Positions 1 to 64,000 of a DNA stretch of 64,000 nucleotides are shown here, piece after piece. Location: positions 1 to 64,000 of the IMG/VR virus record IMGVR_UViG_3300021400_001287, one strand, 5' to 3'. Position 1 is the first letter of the stretch. The number at the start of each line of letters is the position of its first letter. The position numbers were made by a program, and so were the translations under genes. The stretch is from a virus. Its lineage: Duplodnaviria; Caudoviricetes. The notes beneath the pieces were generated by a model, which did not search any database, was not told the origin of the DNA, and was given only the letters and a program-made list of their open reading frames with translations.

Positions 1-406
1 TCTGAGCGACGAAATTGCCAAAGTCTTCTAACCCCAGCCGGCGTCGCAACATATTTGCTACGACCGACGGCAGATGATATGCCGAACTGCTGGCAAGATC
101 AGTAGCCGCCCACTCAATGTCTTCGCTGACGCCCAGCTTGCGACATAAATTATGAAGCGTGCTAAACTGGATATCCAATTGATCTAACTCATACGTATCG
201 AGATAGTCGAGCGAAACGGGGAGACTCGACACAAACGTCACTTCGGTGTCTGTTTTGAACGCGGAGGCAATTTTGTCGTGGAAACCTTTTCCGGTCAGAA
301 CGAGCGTGTGCGATATCTTGGCTGTCTGGCACAGATAACAGATGCAGCAGTAAGCAATGGCGTCGTACTGGTTGCCGTCACTCAGAAACAGTATCTCTTT
401 TTTCAT
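1..406 (-). CDS. hypothetical protein (runs off the window edge)
   Basis: ATG at 406 overlapping the RuvC 3' end; frame open to position 1 (MKKEILFLSDGNQYDA...). Confidence 0.6.
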   Translation of the reverse strand, partial: MKKEILFLSDGNQYDAIAYCCICYLCQTAKISHTLVLTGKGFHDKIASAFKTDTEVTFVSSLPVSLDYLDTYELDQLDIQFSTLHNLCRKLGVSEDIEWAATDLASSSAYHLPSVVANMLRRRLGLEDFGNFVAQ

Positions 407-935
407 CCAAATAGCCCTCTCTAAGCAAAAAAGCTATACCAACAGCGACCGCGTCGGATTCGTCATCCGTCTCGTAGACTTGGTCGCCAACATACGGTCG
501 CAAACATCGAGCCACATGTGGCTTGGTCGCGTTACCTTTGCCGGTGACGATGCGTTTGACTGTGGACGGGGCGAGTTCATACCAACCGGTATGTTTTACT
601 TGCCAGAGCGCAACATCAGCAACACCACCGACACGAAGCAGACGATCCGTGTCCGCGATATGCGAGATGACCGCTTTCTCGCGGACAAAGACCGTTGCGT
701 CTACGGGAGCCAGCAAATCAGTAAGCTGGTCGAAGAAGATAGCCAAGCCATGCCCCAGCACTTTCAACGTTCCGATGGGCAGGTTCAGCTTCTTGAGAAT
801 GGATACTTCGCGCTTGGTTGCGTCATAATGGAGCACAGCCAAACCGGAGCAATGATAGGAAAAGTCGCCGACCTACATGTTAAAATCCCCGTCGACGTGA
901 GGAATGGGTTTTTCACGACGTCGTTTCTTAGCCAT
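378..935 (-). CDS. ruvC: RuvC-like Holliday junction resolvase (in-frame TAG at codon 21, 873-875)
   Basis: GAGGTG RBS + ATG 935; FNM*VGDFSYHCSGLAV supplies the first catalytic strand missing from the track ORF; later motifs VREKA, PSTVKRIVTGKGNATK, DESDAVAVG. Confidence 0.85.
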
Positions 936-944
936 ATTGCCACC

Positions 945-1538
945 TCAAATGCAATGCTTGAAGACGTATTCGCTCCAGGATTCAAGTTTGCCAGCACGAT
1001 AGAGCTTCGCCAGTTCGTTCGACGTCATCCATTCGCCCGTCAGCTTCTCCGTCTCTTTAACTTGTACCGCATCGGCACCGTTGACTTCGATCAGATATAC
1101 GATACCGAGATGCACCGAATTGACGGGGGAGGACTCGTCTAAGATGTAGCCTTCACGGCTGATGGTCATCATGTTGTCCGGCGTGACGCCGACTTCTTCT
1201 TCGAGCTCACGGAACAACGTCGCTGTGATGCTCTCACCAGGGGCCATGTGTCCTCCAGTGCCGATGGAATACTTGCCCGTGAGACGGGAGTCGCCGGCCA
1301 AACGGTGGGTCACAAACACGTCCAAACCGCAGGTCAGTACGGCATACACAATGGGCTGCTTGTAGCTCGGATCGTTTTCGACCTCCCAGCGGTACTTAGC
1401 TTCGCCCTTCTTTGTGCAAAAGTCGATCTCGTCATCGTAAAAGAAATTGGCGACATCCGGGTCGTGGGTGACCGTATCAGACGGGATGACCCAGACCACC
1501 TCGTCACCGTATTTGGCTTTGAGTTCTTCAGTTGTCAT
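945..1538 (-). CDS. NUDIX hydrolase
   Basis: GGHMAPGESITATLFRELEEEVG Nudix box. Confidence 0.9.
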   Translation of the reverse strand: MTTEELKAKYGDEVVWVIPSDTVTHDPDVANFFYDDEIDFCTKKGEAKYRWEVENDPSYKQPIVYAVLTCGLDVFVTHRLAGDSRLTGKYSIGTGGHMAPGESITATLFRELEEEVGVTPDNMMTISREGYILDESSPVNSVHLGIVYLIEVNGADAVQVKETEKLTGEWMTSNELAKLYRAGKLESWSEYVFKHCI

Positions 1539-1560
1539 GTGCAACCTCCAATTTTCTCTT

Positions 1561-1600
1561 CTACTATACTCATATGGACATTTCAGAAAAATTGAGAGTG
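1561..1600 (-). promoter_or_regulatory. conserved 40-bp phage promoter motif, copy 1
   Basis: CACTCTCAA-N12-GTCCRTATGAGTATARTAG, identical spacing to copies at 22261 and 39109; just upstream of an RBS. Confidence 0.75.
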
Positions 1601-2206
1601 GTTCAAGAAATTTTTTTTCGACAAAAGTAGATGTGTGGCCATTGCACCAATGATATTGCCGAACGCAACGATGATAATGTGGCCAAGGTGGAACTGCCCG
1701 GCTGCGCAGAAGTAAAACATATCAGCAACGCAATGCTCGAATCCGCAGAGAATAAACGCGGGGATAGCGAGCAATATGCCAAGCGGCGATCCGTCTTGAC
1801 GATACTTCCACACGGCAAAGTGAACGAGCACGCCACACAAAAGTCCAGACACATACGTTTGCACCGCAGATTGGGCCATCCGCGTTTGTACGATGGAGAC
1901 AGTAGCTTCGATAATATGTGGCGAAGCTAACCGAATCAACACAGCGCACCCCGCTGCGCCGATATAATTGCCAACGAACATGATCAGCAAACTGCCAACG
2001 TAAGATACGTTCATCTCGTCGGCTAAATACCCCGCCTTACCCGTCACCAAGTTCATGCCACTACAGCAGATGGCGTACAGACCGACACAAAACAGAAATG
2101 CGCCCAGGAAATTATTGCCACACAAACAAGAAGAGCCCCCGCCGATGCCAATAAAGACACCAGCGGGGATAGAATAAAGGAACGTAGAACTGAAAGACTT
2201 TTTCAT
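1583..2206 (-). CDS. formate/nitrite transporter (FNT/FocA family)
   Basis: AGVFIGIGG, NLVTG, CGVLVH, FILCGFEHCVADMFY, GNIIG motifs; multiple hydrophobic helices. Confidence 0.85.
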   Translation of the reverse strand: MKKSFSSTFLYSIPAGVFIGIGGGSSCLCGNNFLGAFLFCVGLYAICCSGMNLVTGKAGYLADEMNVSYVGSLLIMFVGNYIGAAGCAVLIRLASPHIIEATVSIVQTRMAQSAVQTYVSGLLCGVLVHFAVWKYRQDGSPLGILLAIPAFILCGFEHCVADMFYFCAAGQFHLGHIIIVAFGNIIGAMATHLLLSKKNFLNHSQFF

Positions 2207-3688: not shown

Positions 3689-4523
3689 CATATTATCCAC
3701 CGTCGCCGGTGGTACTGACTATATCATCCACAAATAATGTGGCCTTCCGCTTCGGGCGGGTGCCTATCTCCCGTCCTACTCCCGTACATTCATCCGGGAT
3801 AGTCGATACACTTTTCAATCAGATGGTTTTGTCCTAAAGAATGAGTCGTCTTGGTACACTATATCCCATTGCCCCAGATATAGCCCCCGCGTTTGATGCA
3901 ATACCCTAGTCGTAATGAATCGATGATGTTTTTCACCAAAGTGCGCCCTGCATGCTTCAACTGTATCGAAAAATAATACTTCGCCGGTGTCTACGTTTCT
4001 GCATTTTACAGATTTGGCACGTGGGTTTCGTGCTCCAAGTTTACTTTGGCTTATCTTTCTGGAAATTACTTCCATCTCATCATCTGTTTTGGATTGATAC
4101 GTGTTGCCTCCACACTTCGATAACGCATCTGTTTCATTGTAACCATTAGCAACGCTGTCGTAAGCACGTATCCAGTATTGCTCTTTCATATTCAGCTCAT
4201 CTTGAGTAGAAGCCGTATCAATGCACTCTATGCGAAACGCATTTCTGCCATACTTTCGTATTGCTCTCGCAAAATGGGTGTTCAATTTGCCATTCTACGC
4301 ATCACAAAGGTGACGCTTAAAGCGGTCTTCTATGGGGCGAATAGATTGACCGATGTAAACTTTATCGTTTACGTTGTTCGTAATTTTGTACACAAACATA
4401 AGTTACCTCATCTGATTGACTTAGCACGGTCTCAACTCAAAGAGTCCTAACCGTTAGCCCACAATAAGTGGACACCTCCGGGCGGAGTTCAAAAGGTTTT
4501 ACATGGGCTGTAGTGTTGCGCTT
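3689..4523 (-). mobile_element. group I self-splicing intron in nrdD (835 nt)
   Basis: exon 1 ends ATGGGU, pairing with intron GCCCAT (P1, U.G); intron CTACA pairs with exon 2 TGTAG (P10); intron ends in G (3689); splicing restores TMG|CRT. Confidence 0.92.
3815..4399 (-). CDS. intron-encoded GIY-YIG homing endonuclease (in-frame TAG at codon 35, 4295-4297)
   Basis: MFVYKITNNVNDKVYIGQS..RFKRHLCDA*NGKLNTHFARAIRKYG..E..WI..GYN; GAGG RBS. Confidence 0.9.
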
Positions 4524-5756: not shown

Positions 5757-5757
5757 T

Positions 5758-13986: not shown

Positions 13987-13996
13987 TATAACTCCT

Positions 13997-14737
13997 TTAT
14001 CGAATCCAAATGGGGCAATGAGCGCATTGTGAGCGCACATCGCAGAGGAAACGGCAATGAAAGTCGTCTTGATGGTAATTGTAGTCCATGTCCATACAGA
14101 TAGCGTCCACCGTCGACACCGCCCAGACTTCGGTTGCCTTCATCTGCTCCATGGTGAACTCTTCTTTGATCAATTCACCCGTTTTGAGCATGTTGAAAGC
14201 CAATGTTTTGGGGTATTCGCCGTATTGGTCTTTGACATGAGCCGCGTAGATGTACAACTGGTTACGGAAGCGGTCGATGTCTTTCTTCATCGACGCTGTG
14301 GACTTGGTTTTATGGTCGACGACCATCAATGACCCGTCTTCCTGGCTTCTCAATACCAAGTCAGCAATGCCATCGAACTCATACGGTCCAATGGGTACCG
14401 TGAAACGGCGTTCGGACGAGACAATGTCATAGCCGGGGAAGCCGTTGAACGACGCGAAGTAATTCGAGCACATAACACGGGCTTTTTCACGATAGTTCTT
14501 CATGAACGGGGGAAACTCATGCTCAATGGCCGTGTCGTAACCGGCTTCCCACTCCATTTGCAACTGTTCGGGCTTCAATTCGCCCTTTGCCCATTTATCG
14601 AGCAATGAGTGAGCGAAGGTACCGTAATCCGAGAACGCGTTGCCAGATCCATGGCGATGGTCTTCGGCCAGATAGGTGAGATAGTAAGCGTAGGGACAAG
14701 CGAGGTATGTCTCCTACTTGGAGAACGACCAGGACAT
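13997..14737 (-). CDS. PD-(D/E)XK exonuclease, AddB/Cas4-like (in-frame TAG at codon 8, 14714-14716)
   Basis: AGGAGG RBS; MSWSFSK*ETYLACPY..YGTFAH..GIADL..DHKT..QLYIY..C..C..C. Confidence 0.9.
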
Positions 14738-14749
14738 ACACATTCCTCC

Positions 14750-16483: not shown

Positions 16484-16622
16484 ATTGCCCTCCTAAATAA
16501 ATGGATACCTGCGGTCACTCCAGATCTACTCTTCACGTGCCAATTCTATAGCCCACGCCTTTATCGCGCAGCATCAACGACGACTCACCGGAGTGTAGAG
16601 TCCAATTTTTTACCGCAGGTAA

Positions 16623-16698
16623 TGGTACCGCCGGCGGGAGTCGAACCCGTAACCGCTGGGTTTGGGCCAGCTCCATATGCCAATTCTGGTACGGCGGC
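16623..16698 (-). tRNA. tRNA-Leu(CAA), short variable loop, C33
   Basis: cloverleaf GCCGCCG..AGAATTGGCATAT..GCTGG-CCCAAAC-CCAGC..TTCGACT..A-CCA. Confidence 0.8.
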
Positions 16699-17035: not shown

Positions 17036-17113
17036 TGGTCTTCACGGAGAGATTCGAACTCTCACTGACAGCAGCTTAAATGCCGTGCCTACTGCCAATT
17101 GGGCTACGTGAAG
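17036..17113 (-). tRNA. tRNA-Leu(TAA), short variable loop
   Basis: CTTCACG..AATTGGCAG..CGGCA-TTTAAGC-TGCTG..TTCGAAT..A-CCA. Confidence 0.8.
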
Positions 17114-21230: not shown

Positions 21231-21629
21231 TCAGTTGCCGCTGAACAGGTCTTCCACGTTGTTGCTGTTGTTGTAGCTGTTGCCACCATTGTAGTTGGTA
21301 TTGCCATTGCCATTGTTCGGCTGGTAGGTGAGTGACTCGATGCTGTTGGCTTTCATCGTGATGTTGACGCCCGCGGTGCCGTCCTTCTTATTGAAGGGCT
21401 TGACGCAAACCGAGCCGGTCGCCGCCAGCTTGTTGCCCTTCTTCATCCGGGCGAGTGTATCCCACTGCGGACCCCAGACAGACACTTCATAGAAGTTGGT
21501 GATGTAGTTCCCGCTGTCGTCTTTGAAGGGCGTATGTACGGCAACATTGGCGCTGGCCATCTGTCGGCCATTGTATTCCCCGATGCGGGGATCAGCCACC
21601 AAGTTGCCGATGATCGTGGTATTAACCAT
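21231..21629 (-). CDS. ssb: single-stranded DNA-binding protein
   Basis: IIGNLVADP, TNFYEVSVWG, KKGNKL, N/G-rich tail. Confidence 0.9.
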   Translation of the reverse strand: MVNTTIIGNLVADPRIGEYNGRQMASANVAVHTPFKDDSGNYITNFYEVSVWGPQWDTLARMKKGNKLAATGSVCVKPFNKKDGTAGVNITMKANSIESLTYQPNNGNGNTNYNGGNSYNNSNNVEDLFSGN

Positions 21630-47500: not shown

Positions 47501-48967
47501 GACTCCGTCAATACGCTCTGGGCACGGCAACCTGACTTTTGCCCGATTACAGAATTTGAGCCCCGTATTAAGACGACAATGCCCCTCTAAATTTACCCTA
47601 CCAAGTAGTCGTCCGAGCGGAGAAAACGCAAGCACGGTATTGACAATCATTAAATAGCAATAAAGGATGTGAATGGGTTTGATAAAGCTCGATAACGAGT
47701 ATTTTGTGACAGCGGATACGCGGTCGTTTGTGCTGAATCGGAAGTACAAACCCGAAGCCCCGAAGAAGAGCGACCTGAAGCCGAGAGAGACAACTGAATC
47801 CGTTGTCGGGTATTACAGCAACATCGCCCATTTACTTAACGCGTACCGCAAAGAGCAGATGCTCAAGTGGGTCGCTGGTGAGAAACTGACGCTGGAGCAA
47901 CTGTGTGACAGGATCAACGAGATGGACGCGACGCTCACCAAGAAGCTGGCGAAGTTGCAACAGATGGATCTTGGCGACGATGCGAAACCGAGGAGGCGGG
48001 GTAAGAATGAGAATGCGGAACAGACGGCCTCGTGATGCTTAGTAGCTTTGCGAAGGCAGGTATAACAATAACAATACAACAAACTGGAGGACAAGATTAT
48101 GATCCATGTGAAGAAGACCGAAAACGGCGTGATGGGATTTGGTTCGATCGAAACCAAGGAAGACGTTGAGAAGCTGATCAAGAACCTGGTCGAGATTCTG
48201 AGTTGTGCTGAAGAAGAGCCGGAACCCGAAGTCGAACCTGCTCCCAACGATGATCTGTTCGATGCGCTGGTAGATGCGCTCGGCTGGGGCGAAGACGAAG
48301 AATGCGACTACGATGAGTGCGAGTGCGAGTGTGAAGACGAAGACGCGGACGAAGACGAGCGCGATGGTCTGCCTCACGTCGTGTCTGTCGGCTACACGCA
48401 TGACTCCGACGAAGTGGTGATCATGAACGACCGCGACACCAAGTGGGGTCTTGCGGAAGCGTTTCTGCGTGCTGCCGCGAAAGTGTGGCCTATTGAAGAT
48501 GGGGAAGACGAGAGACTGAAGGGCGCGTTGCTGGAACTGGCGGGTGTTGCCCATGAGCATGTGGACCCCGACGACTGAATTCGACACGGCAACTGAGCCG
48601 TTTGTGTTGCTTGTAGACTGGGGCGGTAGTCTGCGTCTGGTGGAGCGGAAAGCTATTAAGAATGCGACGAAAGCTGGACCGTACTTCATCGGCGTGGACA
48701 CGCCGCCCATCAAACAAGAAATTGTACTGGAGGACAAGAGTCATGACCGAACTTGTACAACAGATCGAGAACCAGTGGATGACCTACAATGCAGCGATAA
48801 TCAACCATTTGCATCCGGACAAGGAGAAGCAGAGGCTGGCGAACATCATGATCAATAATATGACTGATATCCTTGCCGCACTTCGGGCGTACGAACCCGC
48901 GACCGACGTGATCATCACTGGAGATAAAGACGAGCCGCCCCGCAAGACCAGGAAGAAGGCCGACTGA
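41594..48967 (+). other. run of about 25 small hypothetical genes, many with CxxC zinc ribbons
   Basis: overlapping start/stop ORFs, all ending TAA or TGA. Confidence 0.7.
42864..43310 (+). CDS. HAD-family phosphatase (RNA-repair type)
   Basis: IFLDVDGVLN, VITSTWR, RGDEI..W, YVILDD. Confidence 0.8.
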   Translation: MKIIFLDVDGVLNNLLWARRMFDEGVNVFAKDMLEYRAIELLKRIIDATGADVVITSTWRMRAVQMTHLLDQLARFDIYPIAVTPRLNTDRGDEISAWMQHYDVESYVILDDDSDMDEHMDHLVQTSFEHGLQREHVERAIEILNGVN

Positions 48968-49395
48968 TGGCGAGCGTAAAGTTTGAATTGCGGAACGAGG
49001 GCAAAGGATTGCATGAGTGGGATTACGTCCCGCTTTCTGAACCGAGGATCGTGAAGATGTAGATTGAAAATCGCTCTAAGCTCGACCGCACGTACACAAT
49101 GAAGCTGTATGACAGCAGTCCATTGGTCTCTCAAGGTGTAGCTCCGATGTCCGAGCCGGTTACGGTCACATACTTGGACTTGGATCGTCTCATCAGCAAA
49201 TGCGAGCTGACGAAACTGGAGCAGCTCGTCCTGGACTTGTTGATGCGCGGATACACGCGGAGTGATATCCGGGACGACACGAACTTGACAATGGAGACAA
49301 TTGTTTCATTGTTGACCTCGGCAGTTGAGAAAATCGTGGAAATGAACGAGTACGAATGGCACAGAAGTCATAGACAGATACGTCGTGACACATAA
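48967..49395 (+). CDS. sigma region-4-like HTH protein (in-frame TAG at codon 32, 49060-49062)
   Basis: ATG overlaps upstream stop; PRIVKM*IENRSKLD..LTKLEQLVLDLLMRGYTRSDI. Confidence 0.7.
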
Positions 49396-50156: not shown

Positions 50157-50236
50157 CGGGGCGTAGTAGAATTGGCATATACGGGGGACTCTAAATCTCC
50201 GCCGTTTTATGGGTTCGAATCCCATCGCCCCGACCA
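50157..50236 (+). tRNA. amber suppressor tRNA (anticodon CTA), tRNA-Leu-like
   Basis: perfect 7-bp acceptor CGGGGCG/CGCCCCG, GGGGA-CTCTAAA-TCTCC, ATGGG-TTCGAAT-CCCAT, A73-CCA; anticodon at 50191-50193. Confidence 0.93.
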
Positions 50237-50255: not shown

Positions 50256-51392
50256 ATGGACAGGAATGCGGTATTGGCTATTTTGAATAAAGTGACTGGC
50301 GCTTCGGATTAGGACTGGAGCGAGATCGCGGAGCTCTATCATCTCGACATGCACCCGGATACCCTGCGTAAAGCTGGTGCCGGTGTGAAGATGGTGGCTG
50401 ATGCTGGACTATTGGCTGTACCGAACACGGAAAATAAATACCGTGACGAATACATCGCGAAGAAGCAATTCTTCGACCAGCGTCGTGAGTACAACGCGGT
50501 CTTGGCCCGAGAAGCACGGGGAGATCATCTGCTGGAGTGTCTGCGTGAGTCGGCTGAGAAGCTGAATGAGCAGATGCCTTTGCTCAATAAAGGTGGAGCA
50601 TCGACACAGACTTCGACGACGGAGGCTGTGTTGGTGTTGACCGACTGGCATTACGGTATGGTTGCCAACAACGTATGGAACAAATATGACACGAACATCT
50701 GCAAAGAGCGACTGGAAGAGCTTCGACAAAAGGTTGCCTATAAGCTGGCTCTCCATGATGTGACAATACTCCATGTGTTGGTGTTGGGTGACATGGCGAA
50801 CGGTGCTATCCATGTGACGAGTCGTGTCGCGGCTGAAGAGCACGTGGTAGATCAGCTGATGCAGGTCAGCGAACTTATCGCTGAGTTCGTGGATGACTTG
50901 GCCAATCGAGTACAATACACTCAAATCTATTGCACCTACGGCAATCACATGCGGACGGTCCCGAACAAGAAGGACTCTATCCACGCGGACAATATGGAAC
51001 GGATTATTCCGTGGTGGCTGGCACAGCGCTTTAAGACGCGTGACGACGTCGTGGTAGCTGAGACCGGAAAAGACGAGATGCTCCGGGCTGTGGTGTGCGG
51101 CGCTGAAGTTTGCGCGGTGCATGGCGATCTGGATGGTGGCAAAGACGCGGCGCTGGCTCTGAGCCAGATGTACGAGCGGGCTTTCGGTCGGAAGATGCAG
51201 TATCTCTTCACCGGTCACTATCATTCAATGCTCGATACGGAGAACTACGGCATCACGTCGATCCGGGCGGGCGGGATGTGTGGCGTCGATGAGTACGCGA
51301 AGAACGCGCGATTGTTTTCGACACCGTCTCAGACATTGGCAATATTTGATCGTGGCGAGCTGGACGCACTGTATCATATCCGGTTGAGGTGA
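50256..51392 (+). CDS. calcineurin-like metallophosphoesterase (in-frame TAG at codon 19, 50310-50312)
   Basis: SD*DWSEI..HPDTLRK; TDWHYG, LGD, YGNH, VHGD, GHYH. Confidence 0.85.
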
Positions 51393-51396: not shown

Positions 51397-52260
51397 ATGG
51401 CAAAGAAAAGTCCTGAAAAGATGTGTCTGCGTTGCCATGAGATCAAGCCGTAGGATGAGTTCTATCACAACCGCGGTTGGGCGGAACAGCAGTACGCTGA
51501 TACGGTGTGTCGCGAGTGCGCCAGATCATTGGTGCATTGCAAAGACGACGCTCGTAAATATTGCTGGGATAACAATCGCGTCTGGAATGACAAGATATGG
51601 GACGCCGCCCATAACAAAGCGATGTACATGCTGGCGAACAACAAAGAGTACCTCAGCAAAAATACATCGAAAAAGAGAAAAGACGAAATTGAGCTGGCTT
51701 ATACGTCAACTCAATTTTTTGCTGTCATGAACACCGCGCCGCTGTATCGGTTTGTGGAGAACCGAGACGATGAGTACGATCCGGACTCTGTAGCCGGTAC
51801 GACCCAGGAACTCGGCACCACACGGGATGACGACGAACTGGTCTGGAGCGACGAGTGGAATGGCATGTACAAGAAGCGGGAGCTTCGGTATCTGGATGAT
51901 TATTTCCAACGGTTGCAAGATGAATTCGTCATCGACAACGTAAACCGTGAGGACTACGCCCGACGGGTGGCGAAGGCGTCACTGGAAGCCGATAATAAAT
52001 ACCAGAAGATGCGGCAGGGCACTGGCACAGCGAAAGAGTGGCAGGAAGCTCAGAGCATGTTTGACATGCTGAGCAAGTCAGCGTCGTTTGCTGAGAGCCA
52101 GAGAAAAGAAGTCGCCAACACGTCGACGAACGCGTTGTCCACTATCATCATGGACATCGAACTCAACCACCACAATGAGATGCCCAAGGTGACATTTGAG
52201 AAAGACGACATCGATCTCATACTCAGAGACTTTGGCTTTACCGGGGAGGCTATCGCGTAA
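51397..52260 (+). CDS. Zn-finger protein upstream of TerL, possible terminase small subunit (TAG at codon 19, 51451-51453)
   Basis: CLRCHEIKP*DEFY..CREC zinc finger is complete only with readthrough. Confidence 0.7.
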
Positions 52261-53915
52261 TGCCCCGTATCGATCAAGTTAAAGATATCAAGAATTACGC
52301 GCAGTGGTGGACTCAGATATAGTTCTGGCGGACGCACCTGGACGTGTTTATTCAGCAATACTTCAGTGTGAAGCTGAAAGACACGCAGCAAGTCATCGCG
52401 AGAGCGGTCGGTCTGGCGAGTAACAGTCGGATCGTGAAAAGCCGCGGATATGGCAAAACATGGCTGATCGCCTGGTGCGCTGTGGCGATTGCAATCTTGT
52501 ATCCCGGCACCTCGATCGGTGTCGTGTCGGCCACTGCCGCTCAAGCGACACTGGTCTTGAAAAAGATCAAGAAGTTCACGCGGCAATATTCAATCCTGGC
52601 CGGCGAGATGGTGTCGACCGGCAAAGACTTCGTTCGTATCTCGAAGGATAAAGGTTACTGTGAGTTTTTGAACGGCTCGTCCATCGAGTCGTTTTCGATC
52701 AACCAGGTTGTTGGTGAGCGTACCAAGGTGCTGATCATTGACGAAGCGCCCAGAGCTAACGAACAGGATATCAAGAAGAACGCCGAGCCGACGCTGAACA
52801 CAACGCGTGACTGTTGTATCCAAGGTGGTTACGATGACTTCAGCTCGAAGATCATCTATATTACCTCCGCCTGTTTGAAGAGTAACTTCTTCTACAGGGA
52901 CTTCGTGAAAGCCTATGAAGCGATGCGGAGTGGCGACCCGACATCATTTGCGTGTGTGTTGAATTATCAGAGCGCCGTGCGATGCGGGTTGACGAAAGCC
53001 AGTTATTTTGAAGGTCGGAAGAAAGCGTTGCCGGAGAGCGTATTTGCCACGGAATATGGCAGTTACTTCCTCGGCGCTGAAGCCGGTACGCTGTTCCCGT
53101 TCGACTTGACGGACACCGTGCGGACACTTCGCCGCGTTGAAGCGAAACAGCCGAAGAACAGCAAATGCTGGTACATCATATCTATTGACTTGGCCAGTTC
53201 CGATGCGAAGGGCGCGGACAACGCTGTGCTGGTGGTCATCAAGTGCGTGGACAAAGAAGACGGCACCGTGATGAAGAACGTGGTGTACATCCGATCGTAT
53301 CACGGCTGGCGACTGAACGCGTTGGCAAATGAAGTGCGCAAAGTCTATGTTGCGTTCCCCGGAACAGTGCGTATTATCTACGACGCGAAGGGATTGGGCT
53401 TTTCGTTTGCACAATTCTTCTCCGAGCCGTGGATCGACGACGCAACCGGTAAAGAGTATGAGCCGTGGACAGACGAGCATACCGCGATCCCCGGCGCGAA
53501 TCCAATATTGTTTGCCTTCAAAGCGACGCCGGTGTTGAATGTGCAACTGGTATCTACGTTGCGCGTGGCGTTGGAGCAAAAAACAGTGGCGTTCCCGGTG
53601 CCAAGCACGGATATCGACGACGTGATGGTGTCGGAGGAAGATGACGACGAAGGCGAGAAGATCGTCCGGCTGTCGATGGAGGAGAGTGCCATTTATCTGG
53701 AGGCCGACGCTTTGCAAGTGGAGCTTGGATCCATCGTATCAAAGAGTACGATGGCCGGCAACGTCGTTTACGATACCGAAAAGAAAAATCAACACAAAGA
53801 CAGATACTCGGCGCTGGCGATGGGCGTATGGTACATCAGCCAGGTCGAGGACGATAATAAACGCCGGTTGCGGAACCGGGGCAATGCTTGCATTGGCATT
53901 GTTGACAGCTTTTGA
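52260..53915 (+). CDS. terL: terminase large subunit (TAG at codon 21, 52320-52322)
   Basis: SRGYGKT Walker A, LIIDEA Walker B, IDLA..ADN and KDRYSAL nuclease motifs. Confidence 0.92.
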
Positions 53916-53929
53916 TGGGAGGAAAAAGT

Positions 53930-55510
53930 ATGGCGGCATTTTGGAGACGGGGGAATAAGACGCAGCCCGTTGAGCCCCCGAAAGTCCGTCCCGCCGTATG
54001 CGTGAGCGGCGAGGAAGCCAAGGTTGATGTTGGGCTGACTTATGACAACTCCAATATCACGATGGCAGCTTGGATGCCCGGAGTGGACTACCGCGCCATT
54101 CTGATGGACAAGCAAGCGCACATCTATGACCTGTACGCCTAGGCGGACTACTTCGTCGACGCGGATCCCATTTTTCGTGGCATCATCAAAGGTGTTTACA
54201 CGCCGTTCAGTGTTTCTGAATGGCGGTTGGAGGGCACCAATGACCGGGTCAAGGAAAAATACGAAGACTATTATCTGCGCATTCACTTGCGGGATAAGAT
54301 GTGGTCGATCTTTTATCAGTACTTCAAGTATGGGCAAGTGTTCGTTTACTTGAAGGATGATGGAGATATTATTACATTGCCGCCTCATCGGTGTCGTATT
54401 GCGAACGTGATGGTGGCTGGCGAACCCATTGTGGAGTTCAATGCGTTGCAGGTGGCCATTGACCTTGGCTATCGCAAATACGATTCGCTCCAAAAATGGT
54501 TAGAGGACGACAAATTCGAGGTGAGGATGAGAGGCTATCCCCCCGAAGTAACGACCGCCCTGAAAGATGGCAAAGAGTGGGTTCAGCTGAACCCGATGAG
54601 GACGTTCGTTTTGCAGGACATCAAAGAAGACTGGTTGCGATATGCTATACCATTGATCGCGGCGGCACTGCTTGCGCTTCAGAAAAAAGCCATGATCTCG
54701 AATTACGAGAACTCGACTTTGAATATGATGGTGCATAGCTTCCTCCACGTCCAGTACGGTGACGCGACCAAGAACGCTGATTTCCTGCCGAACCAAAACG
54801 AGCTTCAAGCTCTGAACACTCTGTTCAAAGCGGCCATGTCGAAGAATGGCACTGGCATCGCGACCACGAACGTGTTTGCGAAAGCACAGTTCATTCAGCC
54901 GGACATCAACGACCTGTTCGACAACGACCTGTACTCCAATGTCAACAACGAGATTCTCTCGGCTGGCGGCATCAGCGGTATCATCGTGAACGGGTTGGCA
55001 GAAGACGGATCGAGCTTCGCCAGCGCTCAAGTCTCCATGCAGACGGCGGCGTTGCGCATCAAACAAGCGCGGGACAACTTCTGTGAATTAATGAACAAGA
55101 TCAACGTGCGTCTCAACGGCGGCATCCTGCCTCGGAGCAAAGACGAGAACGTGCCTACGTTCAAGTTCCCGCCGGTTGATCTGACGGGGAGCGGTAAGTT
55201 CTATGAGACTTGCCTCAACCTGTGGAAATAGGGCGTGCTGAGTACCCGGACCATGATGGACGCTCATGGGTTCGACATGGAGCAGGAATTCAGACGGCGC
55301 ACCGATGAAGACGATAGCGGCGTTACGAAAACCATGTCGCCACGTCAAGAGACGCAAAACGAGGAGAGCGACACAAACCAAAGCACCGACACCGACGTCA
55401 GCAAAAAGGTCGGTCGACCGACACTTACCAATGACGAACGGCAAAGCGATCCGGCTGATGCTTTGACTGGACGGCAACCGAAACCGAGCTCTCCGGATGG
55501 ATCACTTTAA
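53930..55510 (+). CDS. portal protein (TAGs at 54140 and 55229)
   Basis: three track ORFs in one frame joined by TAG readthrough to 526 aa; position after TerL. Confidence 0.8.
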
Positions 55511-55561
55511 TCACACTGTCGGCTCCTCCTAGCCGACGGAATGATAAATGAGGTGGCAAAC

Positions 55562-56872
55562 ATGCAGAAATTTGTTATGGCCGCTTCGGACATTTCTCTG
55601 GATTATCCGCAGAGTAATGAAATTTACTTTTCTGTAACAATGCGGATGCTGACAACGGAAACCAACTAGAATGGCGTCCGTCTGACCGCTGGTTTTATCG
55701 ACGATATTGCAACGCATGCGGAAGAATATGTATGTATGCCGCTGTGTGCCGACGTGGATCGGCTGGCTCGCGGCTTGGACATCGGCCTCACTCACATGTA
55801 TGATGAGCAACGGCAGGTGTTCGAAGCGCCGCAGGTCGGCAGTTTTTTTGAGGTGCATAGAGAAGACGACGAGCACGGAGTTAGCTTGGTCGGCACGGCT
55901 AGAATTAACAAGCGCAATGCCAATGTGACTGATAAGATCATCGAGATGTTCAACACCAACCGGCTCAAGTTCAGCTTTGAAATTTGGGCGAGTGAGGTGT
56001 ACGAAGAGGACGGAGTGACGGTGGTTGACGCCGCGCCGGGTAACCGGTTGACGGCGATGGCTATCGTTACCACGCCGGCTCTCCCCGCTGCTGTGGCTCT
56101 GAACCTGGCGGCGGAGGTGGATATTGACGCGTTCCGTGGCAAAGTCTATGACTTGCTGTGGACGAAGTATCCGAGCGAGTGCTGGAACGTTGTCTGGATG
56201 GGTTTGGATTACGCCGTTATTTACTTTTCTGAGCACGGCAATATGGTACGCATTGCGTATCGTATGGATGGTGACAAACTCGTCGAGACGGAGGAATACG
56301 AAGTTGGCTTCGCACGAATTGACGAGGTGAGTGACAACATGAATATTACGCTGGCAACCGCCGAGGTGACCAACGTGGAGACCCCCGATGTGAACGAGGT
56401 GTCCGCTGTTGCCGATGCGGTTATCAATACTGACACAGTGGAGACTCCCGCTGTGGAAACCGAGACTGCTGCTTGCGGCGATCCCGAAAACGCGGCTTGC
56501 GATGACAAGACGGCGGAGGTCGAAAACGACATCGATGACGACATCAAAGACGAGTCGGACGACGATGCCCATGACCTGGAAGAGATGCGTCGAGAGCTGG
56601 AGCGCGTGAACGCTGAACTGGCTCGATACAAGGCGGCTGAAGAAGCTGCGAAGATGGCGGAGAAGCGTGCCGCCGCAAAAAAGTACGCGGAGCGTGAACA
56701 CCTGAATCTGGAAGCGGAAGACGTTAAAGCGGCGATCGATAACGCCGACTATGAAGCGCTTGCTGCTGCCGTGATGGCGAAGCCCGCGGACGACAAGAAT
56801 GAAGAAGCCTACCGTGTTACCGCGGAGATCAAGCTGTCTCCCTATGGCAACATGTTCGAGAAGGCGAACTGA
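55562..56872 (+). CDS. prohead protease/scaffold (TAG at codon 36, 55667-55669)
   Basis: GAGGTG RBS; ETN*NGVR, FSFEI, PA..A; acidic coiled-coil C-terminus. Confidence 0.75.
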
Positions 56873-57339: not shown

Positions 57340-58335
57340 ATGGAAACCATCACCAAGGACATGAATATTGTTAAGGCGTAGGCTGCTGACGCCCGCCACG
57401 AGTCTCTTGACTCTAACGTCCGCGAGAACATGAACAAGGTCGTTCATGAGCTGGCAGCGGATCGTAACCCCATGAACCTGTATCAGATCGGTCAGCTGAT
57501 GGCCTTCACTGTTGAAGAGCTGGAGCGCCCCATGACCAACTGGCTGGATCTCGTTGCCGATCATAAGCGCATTGGCGCTGGCGACGAAGCCGCTTTCCGC
57601 ACCACCGCGAACGGCATCCGCGCCGTCATCCAGGCCAAGGCTGGCACCACTCCCCGCAGCCGCGTTGCCGACAAGCAGATTGTCGTTGACACCGTTGCCG
57701 TGTCTGTGCGTCCCGCTGTGAACCTGCTTGAGCTGGCCTCCGGTAAGATCAACTTCGGTGACCTGGCCATGTATGCCGCTGTCGAGCTGGCCAACAAGAA
57801 GACTCAGTATGTGCAGCAGGTGCTCGACGCCGCCGCGACTTCCTTCGCCTCTCCTTTCTACGGCTCTGGCGCTGGTATCGTTGCCGCGACCTTTGATCCC
57901 ATGGTGCAGCACTGGATGCGCACCGGTGGCGCTGCGATTATCGGTGACATCGCTGCCGCACAGAAGCTGGCTCCTCTGACTGGCTTCACCGCCTCCACCA
58001 ACTCTCAGTGGGGCAATGGCATTATCGAGGAGTTCAATCGCACTGGCCGCATTGGCACCTACAAGGGCGCCCAGGTTGTGCAGACTGTGAACCCCTATCT
58101 GCCTGACGACGTGACCCCTGTGCTGAATATCAGCAAGCTGTATATCGTGCCCACCACGATGAACACTGATGCCCGCAGCCTGAAGGTCGTCGAGCAGGGT
58201 GGCGTGATCTCCGTGGAGAACACTTCCATCAACGAGCTGACCTACGAGGTCCGCATGGACGAGCACTTTGGTGCCGCCGTCGTGTACGGTGTGCAGCCCA
58301 CTGTGTCCGTGTACTACGACTCTACTCTGGGTTAA
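57340..58335 (+). CDS. major capsid protein (TAG at codon 14, 57379-57381)
   Basis: AAGGAG RBS + ATG 57340; 331 aa; high codon bias; synteny. Confidence 0.8.
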
Positions 58336-58864: not shown

Positions 58865-58881
58865 AAGTGGGGTGCAGGGCG

Positions 58882-59319
58882 ATGACAGATTAGACGACAT
58901 GGATGGACGACCTGTATCTGGATGTCCAATGGCAACGCATCCCCGTGGCGATGACGAAGATCGAAGAGATGCAACTCCTGTCTCGTTGTTTTGTACACGG
59001 CCTCGAATCTATGTTTATCGCCACTGGCAAAGCGATGCAATTTGACGCGGACTGGCTGACGTTTTCGGACGAAGGCGTGCTTGTCTCAACGACCCAGGAC
59101 TTGAAAATAGACGAGCTCCGGTACGCGTTTTTGAAGGCGAAAATCGAATTCTTCAAGCGGGTCCAAACTGACGTGAACAACATCGTTGGCTACACCACCG
59201 ACGCTTTGACTGTGACAAACGCGGACAAACCGTATCAAAACTTATCACAGACGATCGAAGGTCTGGAGAAAGAATTGCGTCAGATTTTCTACACGATGAT
59301 CCGACATGCTTATCTGTGA
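58882..59319 (+). CDS. putative head-tail adaptor (TAG at codon 4, 58891)
   Basis: MTD*TTWMDDL; synteny. Confidence 0.6.
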
Positions 59320-59329
59320 GGTGAGCGGG

Positions 59330-59587
59330 ATGATTGTGAAAGAAACACTTGCGACACGAAGCGGAGGCAAACAAGTCGTCATGACGCCGTTCAACGACTA
59401 TTGCGATCATCTGAGGGTGGACGTATTCAAAGCGCTTGGCGACGTCGAAGCAATGTGCGAGATGATGACTGGACAGTGTCGATGCGATTGGACAGAAAAT
59501 GAAGTCGAAGCGTATAGCAAAGTGCGGTCGCGGCTTTTGAACCTGGCTGGCGCTGTGGCGCGTTAGCCCCAGAACTAGGAGGGGTGA
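59330..59587 (+). CDS. hypothetical protein (TAGs at 59564 and 59576)
   Basis: RLLNLAGAVAR*PQN*EG then TGA 2 nt before the next ATG. Confidence 0.65.
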
Positions 59588-59589
59588 CG

Positions 59590-60330
59590 ATGCAGAAACC
59601 AGCGGTCGTGCCGGCGAACTAGACGCCGAGCAATCGGACTTTTTACTAGCCGCCCACCATTCAGAGTGACTATACAAATTTGCTATGGCAAGATCATCCG
59701 CATTTCACAGAGACGTTTGAGCTGGTCCATAGTTGGATTGAACATTTGCGTACAGATGACCCTTAGTATATTCGCGCTACGTACTTCCCTGTTGACTGGA
59801 AGAGTAAGGTCGGCAATTCCGACGCGAGCGCGAACTTCAAGACGGATTGGAACAATCTGATCTGGAAAGGGGACTATATCATCCGCGATGGCGGGGAGAT
59901 ATTGCTTCTTACTTGGGATGTCAAAGAGCACATGAACAACCAAGCGACACAGGCTCAGATATGCAATTTGAAGCTGACGCTGGTTCGGCATGTTCAAGCT
60001 CAAGCAGATGAGCGCGGCTTCATGGAAGTACCGGCTCATGACGAGTATGTGCTTTATGAGCACCCGGCGACGTTCTCGCCGTACGCTGGTCGCCCGGACT
60101 ACATTGCGACGGCGAACGTGCCAGGTATCAATGCAGACGCTTTGATGAGCGGACAAATCCAGTTCAATGAAGAGACGAAGAAGATGACCATTAACGACGA
60201 GTTTGAGTACGGCGGATTTACGTATCGACTGATCAACGTGGACTGGTCTGAAGTCAACTACGATAACACGGCTGGCATCATCAATTTCAACTGTAAACGA
60301 GTGGCAGGTGGTATGAATGCTCCAGATTGA
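59590..60330 (+). CDS. putative head-closure/neck protein (TAGs at 59620, 59647, 59764)
   Basis: AGGAGG RBS + ATG 59590 in frame with track ORF 59902. Confidence 0.7.
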
Positions 60331-61442: not shown

Positions 61443-62282
61443 ATGGCTTATATTAAGACCCCTATGGGCTTTGTGTCCAACGCACCTCATATTTAGTTCC
61501 AGCGTTGTGACGGAGCTCGCTTTTACAGCGATACCGGTACTGCTGGTAGCATGACCAATACGGACAACTCGACCGCTGTTTACGGTGGCTGGGCGAAGTC
61601 TCCTATCGGTTATATTGAGGGCGACTCCACCATGGAAATTTCTTACACCGACGCGATGTTCTATCAAGACATGTTCTCCGTGTCCAGCGCCGGTACTGAG
61701 GTGACCACGAAGGATACCGCGGTGCGTGGCGGCGGCGTTTACACCGTTAAGACCGGTCCGATCGTCGAACTGCCGTTCCAGGTGAAGCTGGACACCATTC
61801 AGATTCACGGCTTTGATGTGTAGGGTACTGGCACCGCCGCTGCTGGTAAGCCTGTTGCCGCGTATGACAGCACCAACAAGAAGACTACGATTACCTTTGC
61901 TTCTGGCGATGTGGCGGTTGGCGACGACCTGATCGTGACTTATGAGCGCCGTGTGGCCAGCGCCGATGTGGCTACGATTACCACTAATGGCAGTTCTTCT
62001 CGTGGCAGTCTGACGATGACTTGGGCTGTTATGAGCGATGGCAGCGACTGCTCTCAGGCTTCGATCGTTGGTTTCCTGCATCTGCAAGTGCCTCGCGTCA
62101 TGGTTACCACCCGTGCGTCTCTGGACACTTCCCGCGGCACGGCTGCGACACCTAATATCGTGTTTGCTGCCATCGACGCCCACCGTGGTGATCAGAAGTG
62201 GTACGATCTGATTTGGGAACCCCTGGAGGATGGTGCTATCAGCACTGATTACGCCGAGGGCGACTTTGTTTGGGATATTTAA
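61443..62282 (+). CDS. major tail (tube) protein (TAGs at 61494 and 61821)
   Basis: AAGGAGG RBS; two track ORFs fused to 279 aa; T/G/A-rich; followed by terminator and chaperones. Confidence 0.75.
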
Positions 62283-62291: not shown

Positions 62292-62322
62292 TGGGGCTGG
62301 GTAACACCAGCCCCTTTATTTT
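62292..62322 (+). terminator. intrinsic terminator
   Basis: GGGGCTGG-GTAACA-CCAGCCCC-TTTATTTT. Confidence 0.75.
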
Positions 62323-62339
62323 GTAAAGGAGAGGTCACG

Positions 62340-62750
62340 GTGAAGGTTAAGAAGGTACCGGATATTGGCATGGCGGAGAAAGAACTGCCGATGGTTGGCG
62401 CACCGGAGAACACAGTTACTGTGGCGGGGTCGCTGATTGAAATCAAGCCGACCAAGCTCAAGTATTTGCGCAACGGAACGGCGAATTTTTTTCGGCTCAT
62501 CGAACGGATGAGCATACTCGACATTGTGCAATTGCCGTCTGGCGCGTTCGGCGAAGATGACGATCGTGATGGTGACAAAGCCATGATGGATTGGCTCATT
62601 GCCGCGACGGATAACCCGGAGTTTGTGCAAGAACATTACGATGAATTTGACACAGAGCAGATCCTGCGCGTGTGTGATATTTTTAAGCGAGTCAACAAAT
62701 TCGTGAAAGAAGACGACTCAAAAAACGCAGTAACCCCGGCGGAGGCATAA
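62340..62750 (+). CDS. tail assembly chaperone (G-like)
   Basis: follows the tail tube gene; ends just after a slippery A-AAA-AAC. Confidence 0.7.
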   Translation: MKVKKVPDIGMAEKELPMVGAPENTVTVAGSLIEIKPTKLKYLRNGTANFFRLIERMSILDIVQLPSGAFGEDDDRDGDKAMMDWLIAATDNPEFVQEHYDEFDTEQILRVCDIFKRVNKFVKEDDSKNAVTPAEA

Positions 62751-63088
62751 CGATCGACCGGGGAATGGCGCTCATTGCCGCGCATCTGGGCATTATAGAC
62801 GAAGATGCAATTTTGGACATGACCTTTGACTGGTTTAACGAAGTGCTCGAAGTATTGGGTGAAGTGGTAAACTACAACGCCGTGGTGAATTACGCGGGCA
62901 ACTCATTCTGCGAAAAGTCGTGGGACATGATCCTGGATAACAATCCGATGTTGAAGGGGCAGATACTGACATCTGACCAGCGTTCGTGGGAACAGTTTTT
63001 CAACACGGCAAAAATTCGGACGATAACCAAAGGAGAACGGAAAAATGGAGAAGAAAATGGTGGTTTTGGGGCAGGAGGTTTCGGTTAA
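62720..63088 (+). CDS. -1 frameshift extension (GT-like chaperone)
   Basis: -1 frame open from 62720 into ORF 62765-63088. Confidence 0.7.
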   Translation, partial: KKRSNPGGGITIDRGMALIAAHLGIIDEDAILDMTFDWFNEVLEVLGEVVNYNAVVNYAGNSFCEKSWDMILDNNPMLKGQILTSDQRSWEQFFNTAKIRTITKGERKNGEENGGFGAGGFG

Positions 63089-63584
63089 AAACCACGTCGG
63101 CTATCAACAGAAGATGGACGCGGCGGAGGAGTATGTTGCGATGTCGGCAGTGTTCGATGAAGAGCATGGGCTCTGCTATATGTCTCCGTATGAAGAAGCC
63201 GTGAAGAAATACATGAAGCTCAAGACGTATACTGGACTTGACATGAGCAACTACAACGGCATCGACGGTCTGTGCCGATTGATGGACGACATCGACGAGG
63301 TGCCCATCGACGAGTTCGAAGGATTCGTTGACGACGACTGGGTGATCATTTACAACCTGGCTTACGTGATCTATTGTAACGTGTCGGATGTGTTCGAAAA
63401 AGAGCATTCTCTTGAACATCGCGTTAAGACCAGTTTCGGTTTCCTGCTGGACGGTAAAGACTTGACTCAGACATTGGCGGAAGCGCGTGAAGTCAACGAG
63501 CAGATGATCGACCATCTCGGCGCGATCGCTAAGACGAAAACACAGCCTATCGATATGGCGCAGTATGCAAAGAAGCGCAAGTAA
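63045..63584 (+). CDS. hypothetical protein
   Basis: AAGGAG RBS; 179 aa. Confidence 0.75.
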   Translation: MEKKMVVLGQEVSVKNHVGYQQKMDAAEEYVAMSAVFDEEHGLCYMSPYEEAVKKYMKLKTYTGLDMSNYNGIDGLCRLMDDIDEVPIDEFEGFVDDDWVIIYNLAYVIYCNVSDVFEKEHSLEHRVKTSFGFLLDGKDLTQTLAEAREVNEQMIDHLGAIAKTKTQPIDMAQYAKKRK

Positions 63585-63607
63585 TATGAAGTGAGGAGTG
63601 ACGCTGA

Positions 63608-64000
63608 ATGGCGGACAATCTGGTATAGGGGAAACTGCGGTTTGATACGTCGTAGATTGATAAACAATTGTCCGACGTCACGGCGAAGCTAAACGAAGTC
63701 AAGAAGATAGCGGCGCAAGCGAAACAAGTTGCCGGTGCGACAAAAACCGCGTCGCGGTCATCTGCCTCCAAGAGTGCGTCAACATCTGCGGACAAAGAGC
63801 AGTTGCGTATTATCAGAGAACTGAAGACATATACAACTGATTTAACAAAAGCGCAACGTGAATATGTCACAGCACTCAAGACGGGCAATGCTGAAAACGT
63901 GAACTATTGGAGCAATGAGACCAATAGAATAAAGGCATCTATCGATGCCCATAAAGAACAGGCGTCTGCGATCGACATGAGCCGCAACAACAGGGCTAAG
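63608..64000 (+). CDS. probable tape measure protein, 5' part (TAGs at codons 7 and 16)
   Basis: GAGGAG RBS; MADNLV*GKLRFDTS*IDKQL.., helical A/K-rich frame open to the window end. Confidence 0.65.

Follow-up and report, generated by a model that had tools for sequence, protein, structure and literature searches.

The virus record IMGVR_UViG_3300021400_001287 of IMG/VR (Duplodnaviria; Caudoviricetes) is a contig of 91,208 bp, hereafter G000, and the stretch of DNA analysed here, called the window, consists of its first 64,000 nucleotides (nt). The ends of the contig overlap by 108 bp, so the genome is complete and circular, with a length of about 91.1 kb and a GC content of 49.6%; G000 is a circular temperate phage from gut or rumen. 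Among its genes are those of an integrase, DNA polymerase III alpha, a primase-helicase, ThyX, a split NrdD and an ERF recombinase, and the genome further carries a PD-(D/E)XK nuclease, a fusion of polynucleotide kinase, phosphatase and RNA ligase, and a putative sigma factor. The virion module is SPbeta-like, with matches to YonB, YomX, YomW and YomU, and eight tRNAs are predicted, one of them with the anticodon CUA. The subject of this study is the TAG codon, which stands in frame in genes of this phage, and the amino acid that the tRNA(CUA) would deliver to it.

The initial annotation had listed 23 in-frame TAGs in 17 otherwise intact genes within positions 378-64000. All of them were located again, and 16 of the 17 genes can be called intact, on the grounds that a stretch of homology or a family match extends across the TAG, or at least as far as its column, or that a relative has TAG at the same codon; the exception is the gene at 34546, where TAG is codon 4, an ATG lies six codons downstream and the status of the TAG is ambiguous. 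In the whole of G000 some 40 in-frame TAGs are credible, spread over about 27 genes, and homology continues across the TAGs in the terminase, portal, capsid, tail, nuclease, ERF and sigma factor genes. The comparison of coding densities suggested in that annotation came out in favour of an open TAG: a codon-usage gene caller with TAG opened as sense joined the fragments and gave 118 genes at a density of 0.85, as against 127-130 shorter genes at 0.82-0.84 under table 11, and the opening of TGA (0.68) or of TAA (0.80) instead was worse. The gain is small because most TAGs lie near the 5′ ends. The 118 genes all end, as had been claimed for the credible genes then checked, in TAA (57) or TGA (61), without any unambiguous TAG terminator. 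Four of them, including the gene at 29558, already described as ambiguous, have a TAG within six codons of the end, followed by TAA or TGA after 1-5 codons; these TAGs are ambiguous except codon 87 of gene 59306, which is taken up below.

That the TAGs are sequencing or assembly errors, or the marks of a decaying, non-functional prophage, is scarcely credible. G000 apparently rests on one sample; however, an independent Logan assembly (SRR873599) is identical to it over 20.4 kb, relatives from other samples and species retain TAG at the same, orthologous codons, and the in-frame stops encountered in alignments to relatives were TAG in more than 500 cases, TAA in 5 and TGA in 4. A matching tRNA(CUA) is present and TAG is depleted as a terminator. 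The TAGs of G000 are real, and far above chance expectation. Six others were set aside as probably non-coding or upstream of the true start, namely three in the 5′ extension of the open reading frame (ORF) of the NrdD C-terminal part (2708-3811), two in 15410-16543, which are upstream of the homology, and one four codons ahead of the ATG of 40249-41460 (extended ORF 40126-41460).

Reading of TAG in the phage and its relatives

Relatives were assembled from 8 IMG/VR loci, five whole related contigs, and 69 metagenome loci together with 11 loci of GTDB genomes obtained by portal alignment, and protein homologues were gathered separately for the nuclease, a tail protein, a second tail protein and ERF. 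Scans of IMG/VR gave no confirmed relative with the tail-protein query and one with the DNA-polymerase query. The sources of the relatives were ruminant digestive tracts (sheep, goat), sloth, rabbit and human gut.

The tabulation of homologue residues at the TAG columns, which the initial annotation had named as a check on its reading as leucine, was carried out on G000 by a Codetta-like procedure with the 14 columns that had at least two distinct homologue contexts, and leucine was obtained. The log-odds were +7.0 for Leu, -6.0 for Ile, -15.8 for Met and -16.5 for Gln, corresponding to posteriors of ~1 for Leu, 2e-6 for Ile and 7e-11 for Gln. As a control, the sense codons were treated likewise, with 14 columns drawn at random for each, and the right amino acid came out in 2790 of 2850 trials (98%). 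The TAG score fell within the 95% range of true Leu codons and above all 2000 samples of true Gln columns. The residue profile of the TAG columns (L 0.49, I 0.14, V 0.06) follows that of true Leu codons (L 0.47, I 0.11, V 0.08), and about one quarter of the columns are polar, as is found for true Leu codons, which meet L in 44-47%, I in 12% and V in 8% of cases when compared with the same relatives.

Most of the sequence contexts (asterisk for TAG) on which the initial annotation had based its proposal of leucine were borne out when the homologues were counted. The column of WSFSK*ETYLACP, codon 10 of the nuclease, has L23, I5 and M1 in 29 homologues, and its TAG is kept in the relatives L139 and G001; EIKP*DEFY (gene 51397, codon 19) has L34, I5 and M1 besides three TAGs, VKM*IEN (codon 32 of the putative sigma factor) has L13 and 13 TAGs, and AR*PQN (codon 87 of gene 59306) is Leu in 6/6 homologues. 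VKA*AA of the capsid gene (codon 14) was also counted among the contexts borne out, its column being I23, M9, L4 and C4. SD*DWSEI, with a mixed column in which L leads, and TN*NG (gene 55541, codon 43), with R37, L5 and G4, failed as Leu columns.

Codon 77 of the portal gene shows L66 and TAG 14 among 80 relatives and nothing else, with TTG in the 87%-identical locus L035, and codon 257 of the tail gene at 71158 shows L84 and M1 in 85 homologues. At codon 21 of the terminase the column is W16, L10, A5 and others, the four nearest sense residues being Leu; the TAG column of gene 50256 is L12, K5 and M5 with three TAGs. The columns of the head-tail genes (58867..60330) are L7/V5/I4/M3 (gene 58867, codon 9), L 6/6, V3/Q2/K1, I14/P12 and I 4/4. 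In the tape measure gene, for which a PhageMin_Tail match was found on an identical contig, both TAGs are kept in the 96%-identical locus L143 and the column of codon 16 has L and V. The ERF column (codon 20, 148 representatives) reads V73, L15, K12, I11 and Q2. Codon 127 of gene 61443 stands opposite a gap, A or S, and codon 35 of the GIY-YIG gene opposite just two weak homologue residues, both Ser. A PF12705 profile search of genomes returned the nuclease match with one TAG inside it; in searches of PDB sequences with the RuvC and nuclease proteins, the matches did not cover the TAG positions.

For the relatives, decoding was restricted to frames homologous to curated G000 genes and to loci with at least 4 TAG columns. 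It was found that 49 of 50 related loci decode TAG as Leu, more than 4.6 nats above the runner-up. Leu predominates in 487 of the approximately 700 TAG columns of the relatives, and the G000 residue opposite their TAGs is Leu in 265 of 497 sense positions. When the clade was decoded over six frames without restriction, Leu, Tyr, Gln and Lys appeared side by side; the Tyr, Gln and Lys columns were antisense pseudo-ORFs (TAG complements sense CTA), and this signal was removed by the restriction to homologous frames. In near-identical contexts, defined by at least 90% identity over ±10 residues, TAG stood opposite Leu codons in 231 of 311 cases (74%), opposite CAG in 19 (6%), ATG in 14 (4.5%) and ATH in 6%. 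The Leu codons were CTG 107, TTG 44, CTC 39, CTT 25, CTA 10 and TTA 6; the dominance of CTG is informative because the change from CTG to TAG takes two steps by way of TTG, which are both silent only if TAG means Leu. Judged by these columns, the same code extends over a large clade, made up of phages and prophages of Clostridia from gut and rumen.

The locus L003 (IMGVR_UViG_3300029305_005955, 7.9 kb, 43% GC) is the sole relative whose few TAG columns look different from Leu. Of 7 relatives, 6 have Tyr at its portal codon 138, and at its terminase codon 6 Gln is found in 4; TAG could have a different meaning there, although 4-5 columns are too few for a call.

Suppressor tRNAs and other features of the window

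The tRNA(CUA) of G000 (Table 1) begins 6 nt after the gene at 49437-50150 and is separated by 22 nt from the opening gene of the late block. Its D-stem has 3 bp, its D-loop 11 nt (GAAUUGGCAUA) and its variable loop 8 nt; A73 is the discriminator, and CCA is encoded. The tRNA(CAA) of G000 has exactly this D-loop, which also agrees with host tRNA-Leu(CAG) at 10 of 11 positions; the host tRNA-Leu D-loops are GAAUUGGCAGA or GAACCGGCAGA, and that of host tRNA-Tyr differs, GAGUGGCCAAA. The Leu-type D-arm (3-bp stem, loop GAAYUGGYARA) and A73 are thus both present in the suppressor, and from tRNA features alone a leucine identity is suggestive. The tRNA-Gln(UUG) of G000, with A1-U72 and G73, is unrelated to the suppressors. 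ARAGORN labels a CUA tRNA by default as tRNA-Pyl; this was rejected, the TAG columns being Leu and no pyl genes being found among the proteins scanned. A scan for promoters and terminators around the tRNA(CUA) gave scores no better than shuffled sequence, the "terminator" being the anticodon arm of the tRNA.

Fourteen further CUA tRNAs were found in related loci, and A73 is present in 13 of the 13 clade suppressors examined. Six are of type II, namely those of G001 (13-nt arm) and of L059, L072, L080, L083 and L121 (17-20 nt). The G001 suppressor has the variable arm UGCUUUACGGCGU and the D-loop GAACUGGCAGA, nearly those of host tRNA-Leu (variable arm UGCCUUCGGGCGU or UGCCUCACGGCGU, D-loop GAACCGGCAGA), and host tRNA-Tyr differs in both; its best matches in five candidate host genomes were all tRNA-Leu genes. 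In L060 and L083 the suppressor lies inside an array of Leu tRNAs. The suppressor of G000 would thus be a truncated derivative. Phages that carry short-arm suppressors only, namely G000, L060 (37 columns) and L076 (27 columns), decode TAG as Leu, so the short forms evidently deliver Leu.

Neither a synthetase (LeuRS, the leucyl-tRNA synthetase, included) nor RF2 or another release factor, nor an inhibitor of release factor 1 (RF1) was found among the large phage proteins scanned, so charging would fall to the LeuRS of the host. A passage in PMC11028032 states that LeuRS, AlaRS and SerRS do not recognise anticodon bases, and bacterial LeuRS is able to charge a natural type-I tRNA-Leu (PMC6614811). 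Relatives of G000 lie in metagenome-assembled genomes (MAGs) of Clostridia (Eubacteriales, Aristaeellaceae, Ca. Faecivicinus), and one of them, L107, is a prophage within a 300-kb host contig. RF1 was encoded, above the curated cut-off, in all five candidate host MAGs, with the proviso that MAG binning can err, and the code of the phage would therefore differ from that of its host; glutaminyl-tRNA synthetase (GlnRS) was encoded in four of the five, and the Leu route would have been taken despite its presence. From the column decoding, the decoding of the clade and the features of the suppressor tRNAs, G000 very probably uses UAG as a leucine codon, read by its own CUA tRNA, which would descend from tRNA-Leu.

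Several other tRNAs of the clade are unusual. The tRNA(CAA) of G000 has the anticodon loop CCCAAAC, with C33 in place of U33, and in its acceptor stem it does not differ from the CUA suppressor of the relative G002. The clade phage tRNAs with Leu anticodons (CAA, UAA, AAG, UAG; also those in the arrays of L060, L083 and L059) have mostly variable loops of 4-8 nt, and such type-I-like loops are rare for bacterial tRNA-Leu. Two odd tRNA-like genes lie at 18379-18452 and 18117-18189 (both on the minus strand), one with an 8-nt anticodon loop (ARAGORN 'CAAA') and another with AUA and a weak acceptor stem; at the syntenic place L139 has other odd tRNAs (6738-6811 and 6926-6996, 'ggtg' and 'tt'), which are not alignable with those of G000. 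The type-II tRNA(CUA) of L121 (contig C35 of G006, about 100.8 kb; 86 nt, 17-nt variable arm, A73) is a second one in the Eubacteriales MAG that holds the prophage L107, on another contig, and may be part of another recoded element.

Table 1. Genes of the window with in-frame TAG codons, and tRNA genes with amber or Leu anticodons
Feature	Position	Strand	TAG codon (position)	Family match and remarks
RuvC-like resolvase	378..935	-	codon 21 (873-875)	Pfam RuvC from residue 31; one homologue (G001) has Leu, weak flanks
GIY-YIG homing-endonuclease gene	3815..4399	-	codon 35 (4295-4297), inside domain	Pfam GIY-YIG, residues 2-88
PD-(D/E)XK nuclease	13997..14743	-	codon 10 (14714-14716)	Pfam PDDEXK_1, residues 4-240
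tRNA(CAA), Leu-like	16626..16698	-		4-nt variable loop (type-I-like), D-arm of the suppressor, A73
tRNA(UAA), Leu-like	17039..17113	-		5-nt variable loop, A73; syntenic with the L139 tRNA array
ERF recombinase	21622..22236	-	codon 20 (22177-22179)	Pfam ERF; TAG kept in L139
Putative late sigma factor gene	48967..49395	+	codon 32 (49060-49062)	phrog_5767, phrog_3512
tRNA(CUA), amber reader	50157..50233	+		ARAGORN; Rfam tRNA, 50.3 bits
Metallophosphoesterase/exonuclease gene	50256..51392	+	50310-50312	Pfam Metallophos, phrog_284
Zinc-ribbon endonuclease-like gene	51397..52260	+	codon 19 (51451-51453)	phrog_3314, phrog_2340
Terminase large subunit	52260..53915	+	codon 21 (52320-52322)	Pfam Terminase_6N
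Portal protein	53912..55510	+	codon 77 (54140-54142), codon 440 (55229-55231)	phrog_2739
Head-module gene between portal and capsid	55541..56872	+	codon 43 (55667-55669)	
Major capsid-like protein (YonB-like)	57340..58335	+	codon 14 (57379-57381)	phrog_4088; PF27364 YonB match on identical Logan contig
Three head-tail genes	58867-59319, 59306-59587, 59584-60330	+	six TAGs: 58891, 59564, 59576, 59620, 59647, 59764	
Virion structural (tube-like) protein	61443..62282	+	codon 18 (61494-61496), codon 127 (61821-61823)	phrog_2729, residues 27-257
Tape measure gene (2130 codons, to contig position 70000)	63608..64000 in window	+	codons 7 and 16 (63626, 63653)	

The head-module gene at 55541, labelled a protease in the initial annotation, gave no Pfam or PHROG match. 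Beyond the window, at 82.9-84.0 kb of G000 on the plus strand, an open frame of 355 codons with two TAGs was skipped by the gene caller; one of its TAG columns is Leu in 5/5 relatives, and the frame is probably a further recoded late gene.

Other peculiarities of the window are found on its minus strand. The nrdD gene is split (2708-5756): 4437-5756 encodes its N-terminal part (positions 2-269 of the profile), about 2708-3690 its C-terminal part (positions 264-562), and the GIY-YIG homing-endonuclease gene lies between the two. The relative L139 has two NRDD-annotated genes at this locus and no endonuclease gene called between them, and an Rfam search of the split region for a group I intron gave no match. 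A protein of 744 amino acids encoded at 6239-8473, which adjoins the tRNA array and is kept in L139 with 79% identity, unites a P-loop kinase (AAA_33) with a metallophosphatase and a T4 Rnl1-type RNA ligase and looks like a one-protein tRNA-repair enzyme, for healing as well as sealing. The DNA polymerase III alpha gene (10339-14040) contains, relative to L139, an insertion of about 90 residues (approximately residues 841-931), and a sub-threshold Intein_splicing match lies at residues 827-902; the insertion may be a mini-intein.

Placement of the TAG codons and alternative readings

The TAGs are distributed unevenly over the genome. The late block (48.9-84.6 kb) has 2.67 TAGs per 1000 codons, with at least one in 20 of its 31 genes, as compared with 0-0.27 in the two early blocks (51 genes) and 0.56 in the replication block. 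In the late block the TAGs are found in the putative sigma factor gene and in genes for packaging, head, tail and, probably, lysis; in addition, four genes of recombination or nuclease function have them. The integrase, DNA polymerase and primase-helicase are free of TAGs, as are some 50 small genes of the early part. Altogether TAGs make up 2% of the Leu and TAG codons. Within genes they favour the beginning: 27 of the 40 G000 TAGs fall in the first 50 codons, against 10.9% of the Leu codons of the same genes (P = 3e-17), and a hand count of the homology-verified subset gave 18 of 27. This 5′ bias is weaker in G001, and no description of it was found in the recoding papers covered by the literature search. 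The suppressor gene lies just upstream of the late block, directly preceded by the putative sigma factor gene, whose TAG, in a Leu column, is common to half of the relatives.

A mechanism can be proposed on this basis. The phage would supply the tRNA(CUA) descended from tRNA-Leu, the LeuRS of the host, blind to the anticodon, would charge it, and the charged tRNA would compete with host RF1 at UAG in the infected cell and insert Leu. The TAG codon might then act as a translational gate on the late genes, for with most TAGs in the first 50 codons full-length late proteins would be formed only once the suppressor tRNA is present. Alternatively, the early TAGs may be a footprint of the competition with RF1, early termination being the cheapest.

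A number of observations weigh against the assignment of leucine, or against parts of it. Some TAG columns are polar: codon 440 of the portal (K46, E10, Q4, L1, with GAA in L035), codon 43 of gene 55541, cited above, which also has one TAG, codon 727 of the tail gene (N13, D6) and codon 547 of gene 73809 (Q3, A and S in five homologues); codon 18 of gene 61443 (D25, E1, Y1) is not a Leu column either. The locus L143 (Logan DRR595532), 96% identical to G000 in nucleotides and compared with positions 71158-76307, keeps 10 of the 12 G000 TAGs of the shared region and has CAG, a Gln codon, for the other two (tail codon 727 and codon 547 of gene 73809), which leaves room for some ambiguity of decoding. 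Regarding the tRNA, the G000 suppressor lacks the long type II variable arm, Ala, Met and Pro tRNAs scored equally high in a nearest-neighbour comparison of its 5′ half, which was thus not specific for Leu, and a BLAST search against the host MAGs matched T-arm fragments alone. Clostridia are taken as the host of G000 from relatives binned into, or integrated in, Clostridia MAGs, and the GlnRS of four of the five may allow some mischarging of the CUA tRNA with Gln.

One rival reading is that TAG means Gln, as in the standard 'code 15', and that the Leu signal is an artefact of the TAG positions; it is very improbable. In its favour are the CAG codons of L143, the Q of three of the five homologues at codon 547 of gene 73809, the CAG partners in close relatives (6%) and the GlnRS in four of the five candidate hosts, and also that in E. 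coli U35 of the CUA anticodon favours GlnRS. Since CAG to TAG is the commonest single transition that creates TAG, however, a minority of CAG is expected whatever TAG means, and since CAG is so rare clade-wide, the two differences in L143 are read as recent replacements of Q by L; in the tape measure gene L143 further shows TAG at two places where G000 has Leu, and the TAG content appears to turn over at strain level. The Gln posterior on G000 is vanishing and the log-odds are strongly negative in every well-sampled relative, the invariant Leu columns at portal 77, tail 257 and nuclease 10 hold TAG in many genomes, and the ERF column has Q in only 2 of 148 homologues. The features of code 15, Gln-dominated columns and a Gln-type suppressor, are not those of G000; A73 and bodies of Leu type are found in the suppressors. 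That TAG stands for some other aliphatic residue (Ile, Met or Val) is about as improbable as Gln. The columns at capsid 14, codons 22 and 61 of gene 59584 and ERF 20 are rich in Ile or Val, an Ile isotype is predicted for some phage suppressors (PMC10879173), and a first pass with the 8 IMG/VR relatives did not separate Leu, Met and Ile on G000, Leu being ahead of Met by 1.3 nats. The ambiguity was settled by adding the 80 loci: once all data are included, Ile trails Leu by 13 nats on G000, and the deficit of Ile or Met amounts to 30-110 nats in the relatives that are well sampled. The TAG profile fits that of true Leu codons and not that of true Ile codons (I 0.42, V 0.17, L 0.14), and the partners in close relatives are predominantly Leu codons.

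A possibility of more substance, although clearly the less likely one, is that TAG remains a leaky stop, partly read by RF1 and perhaps ambiguous (mostly Leu, some Gln), so that programmed suppression would set the yield of the late proteins; this would modify the assignment of leucine. The RF1 of all five candidate hosts, the lack of RF2, an RF1 inhibitor or a synthetase among the large phage proteins scanned, the low share of TAG and its accumulation in the first 50 codons, where abortive termination is cheapest, and the four genes in which TAA or TGA follows shortly after a TAG are all in its favour. On the other side, TAGs lie deep inside essential single-copy virion genes (portal codon 440; tail codons 257, 365 and 727; codon 547 of gene 73809), the relative G001, with 78 TAGs of which 8 are in the terminase, requires efficient read-through, and no gene requires TAG as its terminator.

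Known systems and significance

In the searchable literature, recoded phages are described with TAG as Gln and TGA as Trp or Gly. Where the phage code differs from that of the host, the preprint of Borges (10.1101/2021.08.26.457843) records no changes other than TAG to Gln and TGA to Trp, the suppressor isotypes predicted by Kienbeck 2024 (PMC10879173) are Gln, Trp, Ile and Tyr, without Leu, and Cook et al. as well as the phAss, infant-gut and jumbo-phage papers assume table 15. A search for leucine or tRNA-Leu combined with phage recoding found nothing relevant, so the suggestion of the initial annotation that the reassignment may be undescribed in phages fits this literature.

The code-15 gut phages (crAss-like, Lak, Garnet, Topaz, phAss-1; Borges 10.1101/2021.08.26.457843; Peters PMC9523058; PMC10607447) resemble G000 in having TAGs in late and structural genes, a phage tRNA(CUA), a host, for G000 a presumed one, with RF1 and the standard code, TAG-free lysogeny or early genes and a proposed gating of late expression. 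They differ in that the G000 clade would read Leu and not Gln, with a suppressor that appears to derive from tRNA-Leu (A73, Leu D-arm, type II in several relatives) and not from tRNA-Gln, in that the charging enzyme here would be the anticodon-blind LeuRS, and in the SPbeta-like virion module and the presumed Clostridia hosts; no theta ribozyme fits in G000, because 22 nt alone separate the tRNA(CUA) from the next gene. Within recoded phages, the meaning of the codon (TAG to Leu) and the origin of the suppressor (tRNA-Leu) thus appear to be new.

Comparable decoding is known outside phages. In the NCBI tables 16 and 22, for chlorophycean and Scenedesmus obliquus mitochondria, TAG is Leu; the reassignment is the same, but those are organelle genomes with dedicated translation, whereas here a virus would impose the meaning in a cell where TAG is a stop, the origin being independent. 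In E. coli, supP (Su6+, from leuX) is a tRNA-Leu body with the anticodon CUA that inserts Leu at UAG, LeuRS not inspecting the anticodon. supP is a laboratory mutation that suppresses nonsense alleles, whereas the suppressor gene of the clade is conserved, and dozens of essential phage genes would depend on it; that of G000, unlike supP, has its variable arm cut to 8 nt. A short variable loop is shared with the type-I tRNA-Leu of Streptomyces coelicolor, which is leucylated (PMC6614811); the latter, however, is a cellular sense-codon tRNA(CAA), whose LeuRS depends on a special leucine-specific domain and makes no use of A73.

The evidence tilts, by a small margin, towards a fuller picture, in which a clade of Clostridia phages, temperate and with SPbeta-like virion modules, would use UAG as Leu, a code not found in the searchable literature for any virus or bacterium. 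It would have been installed by tRNA-Leu(CUA) genes, some of them short-armed and yet delivering Leu, the TAGs would favour the first ~50 codons of the late genes and the putative late sigma factor, and the suppressor would act as master switch of the late programme.

Prodigal-gv, Pharokka-gv and table 15 translate a recoded TAG as Gln. If the reading as leucine is true, all TAGs of the clade are mistranslated with Q for L, often at invariant core positions, which affects annotation, structure prediction and metaproteomic searches. Viral code change would also not be limited to the two routes given by the susceptibility of synthetases, GlnRS for CUA and TrpRS for UCA, and a route by way of the anticodon-blind LeuRS would be added to them. 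The clade offers a source of natural UAG-reading tRNA-Leu variants, short-armed forms included, for genetic-code engineering, and a natural case of a suppressor in competition with RF1. The 5′ bias of the TAGs, together with the TAG in the putative late sigma factor, makes the idea of a code switch as gate of the late genes directly testable.

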